Positions 2,070-33,834 of a stretch of 64,000 nucleotides of DNA are shown one piece after another. The position numbers and the translations under genes are program-made. The stretch comes from a virus, in the IMG/VR virus record IMGVR_UViG_3300028920_000052, positions 33,596-97,595 of that record, one strand, 5' to 3'. Position 1 is the first letter of the stretch. Every line of letters starts with the position of its first letter. The notes under the pieces are model-generated. The model saw only the letters and a list, made by a program, of their open reading frames with translations. It made no database searches and was not told the DNA's origin.

Positions 2070-2444
2070 TTAATCTGATAAAAGGTCAGTTAATTGAGAT
2101 CTCGCTTCATTTTTTATATTAGATAAGTCTATTTCAGAAAGTTTTATTGCTTCTTTTATTAAAGAATTTAAATTAAGCCTAATAACTTTATCTAAATAAA
2201 AAGCAAGTCTAGGCATTTGATGATATACAGCATCTCCAGAGGGTATTTCTGTGGAATAACTTATCAAATATCCTAAATTTTCTCCATTGTTATACCATTT
2301 ATCTTTAGAAGTTGTTAGTTCATATATAATTTTTCTATTTTTTTTCTTATTCACAATAGAAGCTTTAGTTATGATAGAAATCATATATTCATGCTCTTCT
2401 TTTTCCTTTAAATATTTATTCATTAAATTTTCCATTATTTCCAA
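2070..2444 (-). CDS. hypothetical protein
   Basis: 124 aa, overlaps upstream stop. Confidence 0.65.
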   Translation of the reverse strand: MEIMENLMNKYLKEKEEHEYMISIITKASIVNKKKNRKIIYELTTSKDKWYNNGENLGYLISYSTEIPSGDAVYHQMPRLAFYLDKVIRLNLNSLIKEAIKLSEIDLSNIKNEARSQLTDLLSD

Positions 2445-4317: not shown

Positions 4318-5283
4318 CAACAGGTTTTCTTCCTGCTGGACTTTATCTTAACCATATACAATTATATTGTACTTAGGTAATCTCCGTTAAGTCTCTACAC
4401 CTTCCTTATTTCACACAAGGCTTGGCTCGGTATTCCCAACGCTGGTTCACCGAATTTGAAGATTTTGTACTTTAAATGTTTCCAAATAAAGAGGCATATA
4501 ATCTGTTATATTTTCTTTCTAGATAAACAGATGCGTTTTTGTATATTAAATTATATAAAGAAGCTATGTCTTTTTTAGAATATATTCCTATTATGTAAAT
4601 ACTATCTTTTCTACAAGAAACTGTACAATGAATATTATTTTGGGTAAACCACTCTACAAGTTGATTCTTAAATTCTACAGATTGGGTAGCAATTTCAGTC
4701 CTACCAGTAGTTTTTCTAATAAACCCATCTCCATCTATTACTCCTCTAATAAAAGAAGGTGATAGTGAAATATTCATTTTAATAGTTTTACTTTTTCTGG
4801 GAGTTATTCCAAGATTTCTCAAGAATAAATTACAAGATTTATTTTTGAATACGACTCTATATTCAATAGAATTAAACTTTTTACTAAAAACTGTTCTTAT
4901 AGGTACCTTTGAAAATTTTGAATACTTTTTTATATGTTCTAAATCTTTTTCTTGTAATCCTAAAGATACTACATATTCTTTATCTCCTATAGTTCCATCA
5001 GAAGCAAGCATACCTAACCAATATTGCACTTCTTCATTTTCTAAATCTAAAAATGGATTAAGTACTTTACTTTGAGCTTCTGATTGATTTCTTGGAATTA
5101 TTCTATTTCTTAATAATATTCTTCTAATAGTAGTATTATAAGTTTTTAACTCTAAAGCTAATTGTTTCGTAGTCTTACCCTGTAAATATTCTTTAACTAT
5201 TTGTTCTTCATTATATTTTAACATACGTATAATTATTGATTCGGCAATATATACCACAATAATCATACCAATTTTTATCTTCT
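4318..5283 (-). mobile_element. group I intron 1 in polA (966 nt)
   Basis: interrupts motif A DYSG|MELR; exon ends in T, intron ends in G (4318); P AAATTCGGTGAA (4446-4457), Q AATACCGAGCCAAG (4421-4434), R GAAGGTGTAGAGACT (4390-4404), S AAGATAAAGTCC (4338-4349). Confidence 0.92.
4472..5266 (-). CDS. intron-encoded double-motif LAGLIDADG homing endonuclease
   Basis: YWLGMLASDG and FIRGVIDGDG motifs, N-terminal HTH-like segment; real start may be ATG at 5224. Confidence 0.9.
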   Translation of the reverse strand: MIIVVYIAESIIIRMLKYNEEQIVKEYLQGKTTKQLALELKTYNTTIRRILLRNRIIPRNQSEAQSKVLNPFLDLENEEVQYWLGMLASDGTIGDKEYVVSLGLQEKDLEHIKKYSKFSKVPIRTVFSKKFNSIEYRVVFKNKSCNLFLRNLGITPRKSKTIKMNISLSPSFIRGVIDGDGFIRKTTGRTEIATQSVEFKNQLVEWFTQNNIHCTVSCRKDSIYIIGIYSKKDIASLYNLIYKNASVYLERKYNRLYASLFGNI

Positions 5284-6465
5284 ACCGCTGTAGTCTCCAC
5301 CAACAATTTTATATCCTTCTCTAGGTATAAAAGCACTTCTAATTTCTTTACCAAATTCTCCATGTGAAGGGATTTGATTTAGGTTAGGTTCTGATACTGA
5401 GATTCTTCCAGTTGCCAATATTTGCCATACATTATAATGAACTCTTTTAGTAACAGAATTTATATGTTTTAAAAAGTTCATACCAAAAGCATCAGCAAGT
5501 TTATTATGTTTACTGTAATTTATTAATAGGGAAACTAATGAATGGCTAAACTTATTTTTTTGCAGTATTCTATCTCCTACAGAGTCAATTTTTAATCCTA
5601 ATTCTCTTAATATTTCTAATTTCTGTTGATTTGACTTCCAATTTATGTAAGTATCTCTTTCTGTATTATCAAAGAAAAGATTTCCTTGTTTATATATTGT
5701 ACAATATTTAGTTAAAGCATTAGTATTCGGTAAATCTTTAGTACCTAATTTATAAATTAAAGTATCCATTTCTTTTTCTACATCATCTCTAATTTTTGAA
5801 GCTTTAATTGCAACATTTTTCCATTTATCAGTGTCTACTCTAATCCCAGTGTACTCCATCCTAGCAAATACTTTTACTACTTCATTTTCTAAATTTAATG
5901 TGTTTTCTAACCCTAAAGTTTTTATTTTTGGCAATTGTAAGTCTTTGATTTTACCTAAATACTTTACATCATTACATCCATAAACTATTACTCTATCTGA
6001 TAATCCTTCAGAATGTATTTTTCCTCTTATTTCTTTATCTAATTCAACATTAAGGTACTTCTTTGCTATACCTTTTAAACTTACATCTCTTTCTTCATCT
6101 GAATATCCAGTAGTTAGAATGCATTCAGCAAGAAATGTATCATAAATATTTTCTACAACTAGATTATTATGATAAAGAAATTTTAAATCAAATTTTGCGT
6201 TTTGAAATAAAAATAACTTAGACTTATCTGCAAATAAAGGTATAAAAACTGAAGAATCTATACTACTCCAATCAATAAAAAATTGATTATCATAATCTCC
6301 TAATTGTAAAGATATTACTCTTTTAGTATAAGGGTCAAATCCTTCAGTTTCTGTATCTACTCCTATTTCTTTTAAACTATTACAATATTCAAGACAATCT
6401 TGAATACTTGCTAGTTTTATATCTTCATTTTCAATTCTTTTTTGATTACTGACTAAGTATATCAT
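5284..6465 (-). CDS. polA: DNA polymerase family A, exon 1 (3'-5' exonuclease and N-part of polymerase); spliced product about 637 aa
   Basis: ExoI VDTETEG, ExoII QNAKFDL, ExoIII YGCND; TGRISVSEPNLNQIP; motif A start GDYSG. Confidence 0.93.
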
Positions 6466-6866
6466 ATCTTCTTTATAAATAAAAGTATTATTCTTTCCTC
6501 TATTAGTATTTCGTAGGATAGTATTTTATTTTCTGTTACTAGTATATATTCAGTAGCAGATACTTTAATAAAGTCTTTATCATTATTAAAAGCTTTTAAC
6601 ATATTACCTAGTATAGATATTTCATAAGCATATACTTGCATATCACAAATATCTTTTTCATTAAAATACATCCATACTATTACTTCTTCTTTTTCAAGTA
6701 TTAAATACTTAACACCTTCTTCTGTATATTTAGTTATTGCTTGTGAATATTCATCTTTAATTGTAGTGTAATCTACATCAAGCTTTAACTTTATATCTTG
6801 TGCAAAAGTATTACCACTTAAACATAAGATTATTATTATAATTAAATTTTTCATTAATTTATACAT
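6462..6866 (-). CDS. putative secreted/periplasmic protein
   Basis: signal-peptide-like MKNLIIIIILCLSGNTFA-QD. Confidence 0.65.
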   Translation of the reverse strand: MYKLMKNLIIIIILCLSGNTFAQDIKLKLDVDYTTIKDEYSQAITKYTEEGVKYLILEKEEVIVWMYFNEKDICDMQVYAYEISILGNMLKAFNNDKDFIKVSATEYILVTENKILSYEILIEERIILLFIKKI

Positions 6867-6901
6867 AGTTATTCTTTGGTTTAATCATACCTACTAGGTA
6901 G

Positions 6902-7216
6902 TTAGCGTCCAGTTTGCCATTGTTCATTGCAATCATCACACTCAAATGTATTCTCGTTTACCCAATAATAAACTAATTTACTTCCGCATCTAGGGCAAAC
7001 CGTACCCTTACCCACAGGCTCAACGCTCTCGCTAACAGCGGGTATAGAACAGTTTTTTAACCCTGCTTTTACCAATGGAATTAAGCCATCAACAATTTTG
7101 GTCAAACTTTCTCTTGGTATATATTCATATCCTGTTTCATTCTCTGGCATATATTCATACACTTTGTGTTTCCAAAATTGTTTATCCAAATAATCTACTA
7201 TTTTATCTCTATTCAT
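6902..7216 (-). CDS. cassette 1 ORF, C-terminal Zn ribbon
   Basis: CPRCGS...CDDC; stop TAA lies within the GTTA core site at 6901. Confidence 0.75.
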   Translation of the reverse strand: MNRDKIVDYLDKQFWKHKVYEYMPENETGYEYIPRESLTKIVDGLIPLVKAGLKNCSIPAVSESVEPVGKGTVCPRCGSKLVYYWVNENTFECDDCNEQWQTGR

Positions 7217-7270
7217 ATTTCTACTTTTAAGTCGTTAAAAAACCGATTCCATACCTGAGTACCGTTAGCG
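7030..7270 (+). repeat. attC-like site 1 (241 bp)
   Basis: left arm CGCTAAC-AGC-GGGTATAGAACAGTTTTTTAAC; right arm GTTAAAAAACCGATTCCATACCT-GAGTACC-GTTAGCG. Confidence 0.8.
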
Positions 7271-7477
7271 GTAATACTGGTTTAACGCTAAGTTTCGTTC
7301 GCAAAATGCACATATCTTTTTATGTTGTTTACTAAACACAACATATTTACATCTATCGCAAGGGTCTTCATCATTTTCTGTCAGAGTAGGTGTTCCATAT
7401 TTGTAAATGGAAGTACTACCGCTAACAATGCGTATAATCCATTGCTTGCATTCTGCTAATTTGTTAAGTATCTTCAT
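7265..7477 (-). CDS. cassette 2 ORF, Cys-rich small protein
   Basis: CDRC...CAFC; stop within core site at 7264; reads through attC left arm (WIIRIVSGS). Confidence 0.7.
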   Translation of the reverse strand: MKILNKLAECKQWIIRIVSGSTSIYKYGTPTLTENDEDPCDRCKYVVFSKQHKKICAFCERNLALNQYYR

Positions 7478-7547
7478 TTTATAATTTTTAGTTGTTAATT
7501 AAAGTTTCGGCTATTAAACGCAACGTATCATACGCTCACCGTTGTGG
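7420..7547 (+). repeat. attC-like site 2 (128 bp)
   Basis: CGCTAAC-AAT-GCGTATAATCCATTGC ... GCAACGTATCATACGC-TCACC-GTTGTGG. Confidence 0.8.
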
Positions 7548-7571
7548 TGCATTAAAACGTTCGCTCCGCCA

Positions 7572-7747
7572 CCACAACATGCAATATACTGCATGGCTTT
7601 GTAGTGGCTTCGATTAAACGTCTGTGCCAATTTACCGTAATTAAACATTTTTATATCGCACAAATAAATATTTCCAATGCCTTTGTCCAGTATCGTCAAA
7701 CACATAATGCATCTAATCCGCAACTAATCTTATACAAACCGTTATGC
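7572..7747 (+). repeat. attC-like site 3 (arms poorly matched, probably chimeric)
   Basis: inverse core CCACAAC at 7572, core GTTATGC at 7741; inner arms ATATACTGCATGGC and GCAACTAATCTTATAC do not pair well. Confidence 0.6.
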
Positions 7748-7754
7748 GTAATAG

Positions 7755-7997
7755 CTATAACTTTTCCAATTGTCCTATACAGTGTTTCAAACACATTAAA
7801 TTCCATTCTTTCCAATACCTAGCATCCTCTTTATTTGTTTTTATTACAGTTCTTAAAGTTCCATTTACGTATTTAATCAAACCTTTAGGTTCGCTACTAC
7901 GCATAACACCGTATAAAACAAATAGCTCTTTATCTGCTTGTTTTGGTGTTATTTTACCTTCTGCAACTTTCTGTAAAATTTTAATTCTATTTTTCAT
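7755..7997 (-). CDS. cassette 4 ORF, hypothetical protein
   Basis: 80 aa; start in attC loop, reads through left arm (ELFVLYGVMRS). Confidence 0.7.
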   Translation of the reverse strand: MKNRIKILQKVAEGKITPKQADKELFVLYGVMRSSEPKGLIKYVNGTLRTVIKTNKEDARYWKEWNLMCLKHCIGQLEKL

Positions 7998-8031
7998 ATC
8001 TCGCTACTTGTCTTATACATCAACGTTATGG
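7901..8031 (+). repeat. attC-like site 4 (131 bp)
   Basis: GCATAAC-ACC-GTATAAAACAAATAGC ... GCTACTTGTCTTATAC-ATCAAC-GTTATGG; 14/16 arm match, both mismatches become G.T on the bottom strand. Confidence 0.82.
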
Positions 8032-8067
8032 CTCAATCCCTCCTGCAATTTACAAACATTTTCATAT

Positions 8068-8107
8068 AAAAAAAATAAGCCCTACACACATTACTGTATG
8101 TAGAGCT
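8068..8107 (-). terminator. intrinsic terminator
   Basis: minus strand AGCTCTACATACA-GTAA-TGTGTGTAGGGCT followed by TATTTTTTTT; GNRA loop and G.U pairs. Confidence 0.8.
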
Positions 8108-8123
8108 ATATTTAGTTTATGGT

Positions 8124-8609
8124 TTATTTACGTGCTGCAAATTCAGTATTTGCTTCTGTTTTTGAAGCAACTGGCTCCCTATCCATACCAAGTTTTACAT
8201 CTTCTTCTACTGAACTTTCAGGAAGAACTAAAGTATTCCTATAAACAGGAGCACCTTCAAATGTAATAGTTTCATTAGTACTAGGGTTAATTTTTGGGCT
8301 ATGTCCTTCGTAAGCTGGTTCAAAAGATTCTTTAATAACCAATTTAACAGGAAACATTTTCACTGAAAAATCCATTCCTTCTTTTAGTCCATAAGTTTCA
8401 ACATCTTTTACAAGATCTTCAACTTTACCTACATACCTACCTACTCTTTTTTCTTCTTGCCTAAATCCGCCATCATTGATAGATAGAGTATTACTACGTA
8501 ACATAATAAATCCAAATTCAGGATTATTAGCATTTACAGTAATAATAGGATACTTCTCATGTGGAGTTGAGTTGTTGTAATTTTCGGGTTTTGAAATAAT
8601 TGCTTTCAT
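8124..8609 (-). CDS. conserved crAss-like early protein, possibly ssDNA-binding
   Basis: likely ATG at 8609; beta-rich, PKINP...GAPVYR motif; function inferred from recollection of crAss-like proteins only. Confidence 0.5.
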   Translation of the reverse strand: MKAIISKPENYNNSTPHEKYPIITVNANNPEFGFIMLRSNTLSINDGGFRQEEKRVGRYVGKVEDLVKDVETYGLKEGMDFSVKMFPVKLVIKESFEPAYEGHSPKINPSTNETITFEGAPVYRNTLVLPESSVEEDVKLGMDREPVASKTEANTEFAARK

Positions 8610-8750
8610 TTTTGTAAGAGTTTTGATTAGTAATTTATTTAATTTTGTAAAGTTTTGTTGAAGTTTTGTCAGAGTATTCAACTTTCCTCTGTCATTTCTA
8701 TCTCAGTATTATATTTACTGCAAGAGTAGAATATGAATTAGTATTTTTAA

Positions 8751-9461: not shown

Positions 9462-9582
9462 ATTTTATTATTATTAAAAGTTTAAAAAGAAATCCTCTGA
9501 GGCTTTATATAATTGAATTGTCGCTCGCTACTAAAAACACTCCATGATTACGCTTCATGTAACGGCTCAGAGGATTTCATGT

Positions 9583-10841: not shown

Positions 10842-11045
10842 AATTTTGAGGCTTTATTATTAGTTTAATTTGTAAAGAGAGTGTTATACCTTTTTCAGGC
10901 TCTACAACACTCTCTCTGTCTGTTTAAAGGTTAGACTTTACCTTTTATGTTATAATATTAAAAAGACATGGTAGAGATAATTATAAAAATGAACCAGGGA
11001 TTAGTTAATAATTAAGATAACTATAGTTCTACCATGTCTTATAAG

Positions 11046-12346: not shown

Positions 12347-12904
12347 GCATATTAAAACAGATAGTTGTAGCTATCACTCTTTTATGAGTTGTTATAATAT
12401 GCTGCCACTACAATAATAGGAATAATTTCTGTACCTATTGATTAAATAGGCTATTATTGCTTTATACTTCTCTACCAATTATGAGGCTAATCTCAACAGC
12501 TAATAACTGCTTTATTGGTATGAAGATATTAAATAAGTGAAATTGGTAGCTTTTTATAGTTTTTATTTAAGCCACTCTACTCTTCTGTTAGCACTGCCAA
12601 TATTCACTTATATTATCAAATAGTTTGTAATTATGTGGCTACGTCACATACCTCTTTAGACTTCCATAGGCTATATTACAAACTTCCATTACTGGTTTGA
12701 TAATTTGTAAAAACTCTTTCTATCCACAATGCTAACTGTAGAATATAATTAAACGTAGGCTCATCTCTACTATGGGTTTGTACACCAAGTTTTATTATTA
12801 ATTATATCTTACCTCAGACAACATTCTGTTAGCTTAAAATTAAATAGTAGGTGTCGCAACTGTTTTATCCTAGTATTTTTATCTGCATTCAGTAGAAAGA
12901 GTTT
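12347..12904. ncRNA. candidate array of back-to-back structured modules
   Basis: six adjacent closing stems of 7-12 bp with inner hairpins; no ORF. Confidence 0.5.
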
Positions 12905-33519: not shown

Positions 33520-33834
33520 ATGAAATTAAATGTGTTGGAAAGAATAGTAAGTTTAAGTGTACTTACTGAGTATAAAGAAGGAAATTTTATTACCTTTAAG
33601 ATGATTTCAGAATTAAAAAATAAACTAACTGTTAGTGAACAGGAAATAAAAGATTTTGATTTGAAGATTGATGGTAATAATTACACTTGGAATCATAAAG
33701 GAAATAAAGAAGTAGATATTGACATAACTGAAGGAGAGAAGAATTTAATAAAAGATTTACTTATTGCAAAAGATAAGGATAATAAACTTCTTGAACAGCA
33801 TGTGAATGTTTACAAAAAATTTGTTTTAGAATAA
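33520..33834 (+). CDS. hypothetical protein (possible fibre chaperone)
   Basis: 104 aa immediately after fibre-like gene. Confidence 0.6.
   Translation: MKLNVLERIVSLSVLTEYKEGNFITFKMISELKNKLTVSEQEIKDFDLKIDGNNYTWNHKGNKEVDIDITEGEKNLIKDLLIAKDKDNKLLEQHVNVYKKFVLE

Follow-up and report, generated by a model that had tools for sequence, protein, structure and literature searches.

An integron-like array of gene cassettes, probably orphan, in the genome of a marine crAss-like phage

How does a CpG-poor crAss-like phage come to carry a row of small genes set between inverted repeats that resemble the recombination sites of integrons, and which enzyme could have moved such genes? This question is raised by a 64,000-nucleotide stretch of viral DNA (the window; positions 33,596 to 97,595 of the IMG/VR virus record IMGVR_UViG_3300028920_000052, which comprises 97.6 kb and is judged 99% complete), in which an initial annotation had seen, between 6885 and 8045, an integron-type array of cassettes inserted at G↓TT (the arrow marks the junction). 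Our analysis indicates that the four gene cassettes in 6901–8031 probably form an orphan array, derived from an integron-like system of phages that infect Bacteroidota. The five GTT sites and four exactly complementary AAC partners are real, and each motif lies precisely where the initial annotation had placed it (table 1).

All genes of the block are encoded on the minus strand and, read in this gene sense, each cassette starts just after one TAAC and ends at the next. The last 7–15 nt of a cassette form an R stem with an arm that begins with GTTA and lies upstream within that cassette, and G, N5–9 and GTATGA... following the preceding TAAC pair with ...TTATAC, located N3–5 before the GTTA arm, forming an L stem; on the plus strand, the L-stem motifs read as an AAC arm, a 3–5 nt spacer and GTAT[AG]..., which pairs with ...[CT]ATAC 5–9 nt before the next GTT. 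L stems of 14–20 bp are present in cassettes 1, 2 and 4, and the unpaired base reported for site 1 is a one-base bulge located in such an L stem. In sites 1 and 2, GTTA is the reverse complement of the stop codon TAA, and the partner arms lie inside the open reading frames (ORFs), approximately 45–55 codons before the stop. The arms of units 2 and 4 lengthen to 15 nt with one mismatch, which is A.C on the plus and, as initially noted, G.T on the minus strand and occupies position 11 of the R stem; the stems of units 1 and 3 are shorter. Every non-Watson–Crick position in the stems of the window is a G.T on the minus strand. Cassette 3, with a 38-nt hairpin, is probably without a real gene, and ORF3 (7514–7723) is doubtful because it reads through the hairpin and across the cassette border.

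Two smaller features of these elements may be recorded here. The junction motif GTATGA begins mini-ORFs of 5–9 codons (MIRCV, MESVF and MIKPKNNYV, each followed by a stop) ahead of real genes at 7525–7540, 7250–7262 and 6866–6892 on the minus strand, and its ATG is the real start codon in other phages (e.g. in block 3 of contig L006). The loop of the 38-nt hairpin (7550–7569, minus strand) contains the G-N-A mini-hairpin motif GCGAAGC, which is GCGGAGC in the window; a variant in contig L005 (approximately 5600–5690, minus strand) retains the motif in the form CCGAAGG, where the first pair has changed in a compensatory manner, and has a 44-nt loop insertion in addition.

In RNA folding of 7255–7590, the minus strand reached −84.3 kcal/mol (z −4.16, 0 of 100 shuffles) and reproduced the hairpin and both stems (L and R) exactly, whereas the plus strand gave a z of −1.61. 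Using DNA parameters, the bottom strands of circularised cassettes 2 and 4 folded into a single hairpin (minimum free energy −21.9 and −19.8, z −4.7 and −4.6, respectively) with an R stem of 15–18 bp, an asymmetric internal loop, an L stem of 14–17 bp and a variable end, in line with the bottom-strand folding that the initial annotation had proposed as a check. The integrated hybrid sites of the same cassettes attained just −13.0 and −12.9, and top strands were also weaker. Once circularised, cassettes 1, 2 and 4 are predicted to adopt the layout of attC sites, i.e. R''/R' with AAC/GTT, unpaired spacers, L''/L', a variable end and a favoured bottom strand.

The pairings are also supported by covariation. 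Across 25 distinct arm pairs of this site family, positions 1–3 are GTT/AAC and positions 4–10 pair in 148 of 175 cells; permuting the partners gave 86 ± 7, with a maximum of 113 in 2000 trials. Position 11 is hardly ever Watson–Crick. A gapped pattern derived from the arms of units 2 and 4 retrieved four more contigs, in which the variable triplet covaries (GCG/CGC, TGC/GCA, TAA/TTA). The L stems of the window and of contig L033 differ by compensatory changes, and the hairpin stems GTTGTGGTG/CACCACAAC and GTTACCATG/CATGGTAAC are mutually compensatory. In the 97.6-kb genome, generic GTT...AAC inverted repeats occur about as often as in shuffles (23 versus approximately 20); among those with arms of at least 9 bp, units 2–4 alone have [CT]ATA[CT] upstream and [GA]TAT[AG] downstream, and lowering the arm threshold to 7 bp adds unit 1 and a single AT-rich match elsewhere in the genome. 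Units 1–4 cluster within 1.1 kb. A known RNA family for the hairpin was rejected, as Rfam (which has no attC model) returned at E up to 10 only chance-level matches and a terminator-like match, and so was a riboswitch-like alternative pairing of the hairpin with upstream sequence, which its relative in contig L027 does not keep.

What kind of genome harbours this array? The large terminase, the portal and the 500-aa major head protein of the record match phage families, with the 103 matches of the head protein falling predominantly into the Crassvirales (crAssphage, Bacteroides and Cellulophaga crAss-like phages; 32–36% identity among the matches listed), and the phage DNA is found in marine-sediment metagenomes and in no listed RNA data set. 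Thus, this is a distant, marine crAss-like phage. Megablast revealed no close relatives, the 185-aa neighbour protein has no relatives in viral contigs, and relatives of its PolA are at most 49% identical, with zero array-type sites at their loci. To this phage the array is foreign: the observed/expected ratio of CpG is 1.21 in 6885–8045 versus 0.21 in the whole window, and dense CpGs span 6906–8024, exactly between the first and the last GTT, and are sparse outside. The CpG-rich block of the initial annotation is therefore sharper than had been claimed, i.e. an exact island that coincides with the array. As for the phage genome as a whole, its strong CpG depletion (observed/expected 0.21, with a normal GpC of 1.15) fits avoidance of a CpG-containing restriction or methylation target.

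Comparison with other phage contigs shows where such units are exchanged. Cassette 2 recurs in contig L033 with 78% identity, the similarity extending from CAAC↓GG to CCGCTAAC↓ between neighbours that are unrelated on both sides, and an 11-kb contig from a bioreactor metagenome matches 7422–7543 only, i.e. from the inner arm of cassette 2 to the next GTT. Contigs L005 and L006 have three blocks in common (98.6–100% identity), which differ in order and have all six ends on TAAC↓G or TGTT↓. Arms identical to one another are found around unrelated interiors, and the 38-nt hairpin of unit 3 reappears, with 97.5–100% identity and unrelated flanks, in Nonlabens phage P12024L, three other viral contigs and two contigs of metagenome-assembled genomes, of which the sole one examined (L027) has phage-type genes. 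The hairpin was rejected as a mimic of a clustered regularly interspaced short palindromic repeat (CRISPR), since its 21-nt core was found as two single copies in approximately 185,000 species genomes, each on a contig of a metagenome-assembled genome, with no arrays.

Overall, nine junctions have their module ends on TAAC↓G, which is G↓TT when read on the opposite strand, and the rest have them on or near TGTT↓, so that cassette exchange at G↓TT, as initially proposed, is borne out by these contigs. Homologues of ORF2, in addition, share a module that begins at V18 (encoded by the GTT codon in the inner arm) and extends to the stop, but their N-termini are unrelated. Because of these module ends and the ORF2 module, both arms of the R stem have to be regarded as exchange points; of the single G↓TT crossover originally assumed, the triplet borders remain. 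Direct repeats between units do not exceed 21 nt with 74–83% identity, and units 2 and 4 do not align beyond their arms. An alternative C-terminus of ORF2 made by inversion, a by-eye reading, proved unsupported.

Which enzyme could act on these sites? In element-bearing contigs L005, L028 and L029, a homologous tyrosine recombinase of 264–273 aa adjoins a site; within the partial loci at hand, no protein family is common to all element-bearing loci, and the recombinase occurs in just three of twelve. Its best solved relatives are archaeal XerA (2e-36) and IntI4 (1e-31), to which it aligns in two pieces, without approximately 48 IntI4 residues between conserved blocks, and with TIGR02249 (integron integrase) it scores 151–179 bits, below the cut-off of 265. 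When 79 further viral loci (799 kb) were fetched by the recombinase protein alone, they contained 129 signature sites, as compared with 4 in shuffles and 0 in control PolA loci (258 kb). These sites are co-oriented with the recombinase gene and strictly one-sided: in the 40 loci where 6 kb flank it on either side, 97 sites lie upstream and none downstream, and in 25 of the 35 loci having upstream sites the last one ends 33–74 nt ahead of the start of the recombinase gene. At position 11, 78 of 81 sites have a G/T pair on the recombinase-sense (i.e. gene-sense) strand, and none has A/C. At one array locus the recombinase gene is situated among phage replication genes (methylase, ligase) and not at a prophage end.

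The window array belongs to the same family by sequence. A model trained solely on 67 sites from recombinase loci (consensus ..AGCWAT..TTATAC-N3-5-T↓GTTA-N6-G..) matched the window at 7895–7932 (E 2.8e-5), 7412–7447 (E 0.005) and 7027–7059 (E 0.015), all on the minus strand and with nothing else below E 0.3; unit 3 (7541–7578) gave no match.

Several observations concern the arrays linked to this recombinase. In loci L046–L123, the junction after the last site is always ..ATAAC↓TAT[TCA]ATATAT.. and not AAC↓GG..; this recombinase-proximal form (..ATAAC↓TATNATATAT) may represent an attI-like site or a promoter. The terminal junction in the window (..CGCTAAC↓TACC..TAAACCAA) is similar to that of L005, where, just 3' of the recombinase gene (2250–2400, minus strand), three TACAACA and four TGTTGTA repeats lie in opposed orientation, a cluster that might serve as a binding array, as an attP-like site or as an origin. 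A cassette in one of the recombinase-linked arrays (L077, 4257–4769) encodes an ADP-ribosyltransferase domain (PF18760), typical cargo for host takeover or anti-defence.

We propose that, whenever the gene-sense strand becomes single-stranded, a small tyrosine recombinase of the Xer/IntI clade would cut it at the conserved GTT/AAC triplets that close the R stem at its base, and would thereby excise, insert and reorder cassettes. In the excised circle, the R and L stems would merge into a single bulged hairpin of the attC type. Less often, the recombinase might swap the halves on either side of the inner arm, which would generate new combinations of N- and C-terminal protein parts. The array was most likely acquired as one block from a phage whose composition differs, and would now be changeable only with an enzyme provided in trans, either by a co-infecting phage or as a host integrase. 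Here, the single-stranded substrate, the exact cleavage point, the recombinase as the acting enzyme and present activity in the phage are what we infer; a recent capture, by a CpG-poor crAss-like genome, of an orphan array from a phage-borne integron analogue is the interpretation that we hold to be probable.

A number of points weigh against this interpretation. Neither a tyrosine nor a serine recombinase (PF00589, PF00239) is found in the 99%-complete genome—which is why we term the array an orphan—and thus, unlike in recombinase-linked arrays, no Xer/IntI-clade gene directly follows it downstream. The Xer-type enzyme is a putative cassette recombinase proposed from linkage, and this linkage is statistical rather than universal, because 30 of the 79 recombinase loci contain no site by the strict signature, and complete virulent phages, e.g. 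Nonlabens P12024L, possess sites without the recombinase. Exchange at both R-stem arms is not predicted by the single-crossover mechanism of attC sites, and cassette 3 has no convincing L stem. The initial annotation had suggested looking for excised circles, but neither excision nor circle or inversion joints were seen at the locus in contig-level mapping, which used contigs only and is uninformative on rare excision. Finally, the G.U/G.T strand bias, and stems that enclose a start codon and the 3' part of an ORF, suit a function at the mRNA level equally well.

Alternatively, the block might be a true cluster of attC sites lacking integron-integrases (CALIN), i.e. contain bona fide integron attC sites served by a host IntI, with the phage Xer-type recombinase being irrelevant. 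Such clusters have been described in virulent phages, among them Polaribacter phage P12002L, where IntI1 recombined attC2 with attI1 but not attC1, with the two sites being called 'divergent' (Qi et al. 2023, PMC9892861). Placed via the primer table of that study, attC1 and attC2 end in the 9-nt arms GTTAGGCAC/GTGCCTAAC, which bracket the methyltransferase gene gp35, and further members of the family bracket gp37, gp40, gp54, gp55 and gp56; since P12002L contains the same site family, the window array is of one family with this published phage CALIN, and the recombination of attC2 also lends support from the literature to the orphan-array interpretation that we favour. A site of this very family has thus been called attC (by HattCI and Infernal) and recombined by IntI1 at G↓TT, and the R''/L''/L'/R' layout with conserved AAC/GTT triplets, the complementarity of a cassette's first bases to its own inverse core and the better folding of the bottom strand all suit genuine attC sites. 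Yet R stems of 15–18 bp and sites of 130–240 nt that contain ORF starts are atypical of attC, the genes point the opposite way to those of canonical cassettes, IntI1 did not recombine the second P12002L site, and the strictly upstream position of the family ties it tightly to a recombinase that is not IntI. Moreover, given the rarity of the hairpin core in species genomes and the phage-type genes on the contig examined, no bacterial integron source is visible. Taken together, we regard bona fide integron sites as unlikely.

The points raised above on mRNA-level function lead to another explanation, according to which the stems are elements of early polycistronic mRNA that serve RNase III-type processing, stability or translational control, and exchange is a by-product of homologous or short-homology recombination where regulatory junctions are conserved, similar to that at the promoter early stem-loops (PeSLs) of other phages. 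All wobbles being G.U on the mRNA-sense strand, a fold z of −4.2 on this strand only, L stems enclosing start codons and a GTATGA motif whose ATG is the real start in some cassettes are all compatible with this idea, and PeSL-mediated shuffling has been published (PMC2839356, PMC4122927). The junctions, however, are not near-identical direct repeats; only 3–5 nt are invariant, and homologous exchange over so short a stretch would not account for ends that are exact to the nucleotide in 10 of 10 junctions. In addition, neither the exclusive position of the sites upstream of a tyrosine recombinase gene nor the identical arms around unrelated interiors are explained, and there was no Rfam match. 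mRNA elements shuffled in this way therefore seem quite improbable to us. Invertible switches (invertons or shufflons), in which a tyrosine recombinase would flip the segment between each pair of inverted repeats and thereby switch a gene or its C-terminal part on or off, are very improbable indeed: although inverted repeats flank genes or gene ends, the recombinase adjoins arrays in relatives and within-pair arm identity suits the need for identical crossover regions, 0 of 81 recombinase-adjacent cassettes are flipped (position 11 being G/T in 78 and A/C never), the variation seen consists of reordering and replacement rather than inversion, and the contigs showed no strand-change joints at the locus.

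Returning to an orphan array from a phage-borne system, a wider, still tentative generalisation is that Bacteroidota phages may run their own integron analogue, in which an Xer-type recombinase acts on folded, single-stranded sites that overlap genes. Accessory genes would thereby be moved as a whole between unrelated families such as crAss-like phages and flavobacterial siphoviruses, crossover at the inner arm would assemble small proteins, and orphan arrays would be updated in trans during co-infection. If this were true, there would be a defined enzyme and a defined site for single-gene mosaicism in phage early regions, which are home to anti-defence and host-takeover genes and whose mosaicism has so far mostly been ascribed to illegitimate or short-homology recombination. 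It would also extend structure-recognised cassettes to a simpler recombinase and to viruses, and would explain the 'divergent attC sites' published for the Polaribacter phage. Because the sites lie inside ORFs, such a system could build new proteins from parts. Furthermore, as the exact CpG island shows recent uptake of the array by the crAss-like genome, cassette borders become usable markers for accessory cargo in uncultured phages.

Table 1. Components of the cassette array and its borders (positions in the window; for unit arms and the fifth GTT site, the first position of each motif).
Feature	Position	Strand	Details
Unit 1 arms	6901 / 7030		GTTAGCG / CGCTAAC
Unit 2 arms	7264 / 7417		GTTAGCGGTA / TACCGCTAAC
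Unit 3 arms	7541 / 7570		GTTGTGGTG / CACCACAAC
Unit 4 arms	7741 / 7898		GTTATGCGTA / TACGCATAAC
Fifth GTT site	8025		GTTATGG
Downstream border (gene sense)	6885–6900	minus	Half site of L' type (TCATAC) and spacer, immediately before first GTT; no partner arm beyond; CpG island ends here
Cassette 1	6902–7264	minus	ORF1 6902–7216 (104 aa, C-terminal zinc ribbon, PF12760 3e-6); R arms 6901–6907/7030–7036 (7 bp), stop TAA in arm; L stem 7042–7061/7234–7255 (approximately 20 bp, one-base bulge)
Cassette 2	7265–7541	minus	ORF2 7265–7477 (70 aa, CxxC..CxxC); R arms 7264–7278/7412–7426 (15 nt, G.T at position 11 on minus strand); L stem 7431–7444/7521–7534, enclosing 5' untranslated region, start codon and 17 codons
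Cassette 3	7542–7741	minus	38-nt hairpin 7541–7578 (9-bp R stem, 20-nt loop)
Cassette 4	7742–8025	minus	ORF4 7755–7997 (80 aa); R arms 7741–7755/7893–7907 (15 nt, G.T at position 11); L stem 7911–7926/8003–8018 (16 bp, two G.T on minus strand)
Upstream border half site	8025–8031	minus	GTTATGG (gene sense ..GCCATAAC↓G); no complementary partner; CpG island ends at 8024
Intrinsic-terminator-like hairpin and T run	8068–8107	minus	Stem plus U run in alignment; ends preceding gene 8124–8681

In the surroundings of the array, the terminator-like hairpin ends the preceding gene, so that the array opens a new transcription unit. On its other side, the gene for a family A DNA polymerase is interrupted (4472–6465, minus strand): ORF 5275–6465 stops at ..GGDYSGRR within motif A, and the next ORF (4472–5266) is a LAGLIDADG homing endonuclease (PF14528 6e-6; phrog_4645 1e-32), an arrangement that points to an intron with an endonuclease. 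Perfect inverted repeats of 12–13 nt with large interiors also occur in early intergenic regions at 9489–9578, 10963–11040 and 12711–12904; they are devoid of the flank motifs of the array family.

How does this array compare with known systems of modular gene exchange? As in the array, the modules shuffled at the PeSLs of T4-type phages (PMC2839356, PMC4122927) each consist of one small accessory early gene of a lytic phage and are delimited by composite junctions. PeSLs, however, operate by homologous recombination between near-identical direct repeats, and such repeats do not flank each ORF of the array, whose junctions consist of short motifs only, with covarying arms and a linked site-specific recombinase. 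Acinetobacter plasmids have pdif modules, i.e. gene modules exchanged between replicons and delimited by Xer-type recombinase sites in alternating orientation; these are 28-bp double-stranded XerC/XerD sites. By contrast, the sites of the array are long folded structures whose dif resemblance is slight and by eye only; a dif-like junction suggested by CGCATAA..TGTATA in unit 4 is not general and was discarded.

The closest published counterparts are the phage CALINs (PMC9892861). A CALIN is defined by at least two attC sites within a few kb with no integron integrase nearby; with its four attC-like sites, and no integrase, the array is a candidate for one. The array and the published clusters alike consist of small accessory genes in a row, with folded, attC-type separators and no phage integrase. 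That study treats the sites as components of bacterial integrons and leaves their 'divergent' directions unexplained, whereas here the two directions correspond to the two arms of a single R stem, the sites are associated with an Xer-type recombinase encoded by phages, and the genome is that of a crAss-like phage. The novelty claimed in the initial annotation is thus reduced by the phage attC clusters already published, including one of the same family in a flavobacterial phage; it persists insofar as our literature search found no paper linking such arrays to an Xer-type enzyme or to the Crassvirales.

Accordingly, the integron-type array of the initial annotation has to be redrawn rather than abandoned. 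It is not an integron in the strict sense: IntI is absent, and the enzyme linked to the family, of 264–273 aa, lacks approximately 48 residues present in IntI4; in relatives, its gene lies co-oriented at the downstream (3') end of the array, whereas an integron has attI and Pc at the integrase end. In an integron, moreover, a promoterless ORF precedes its attC and reads in array sense; here, the ORFs run antisense to the top strand defined by G↓TT and start inside the sites, which at 130–240 nt exceed the usual range of attC, R stems reach up to 18 bp with a fixed G.T at position 11, and exchange occurs at both arms. What stands is a foreign set of exchangeable units with attC-like sites, and the likeness to integrons goes deep. 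The sites are defined by structure, with the AAC/GTT triplets alone being fixed, and consist of an R box, an unpaired spacer, an L box and a variable end; the first bases of a cassette are complementary to the inverse core of that cassette, folding favours one of the two strands, and cassettes are gained, lost and reordered at the triplet.

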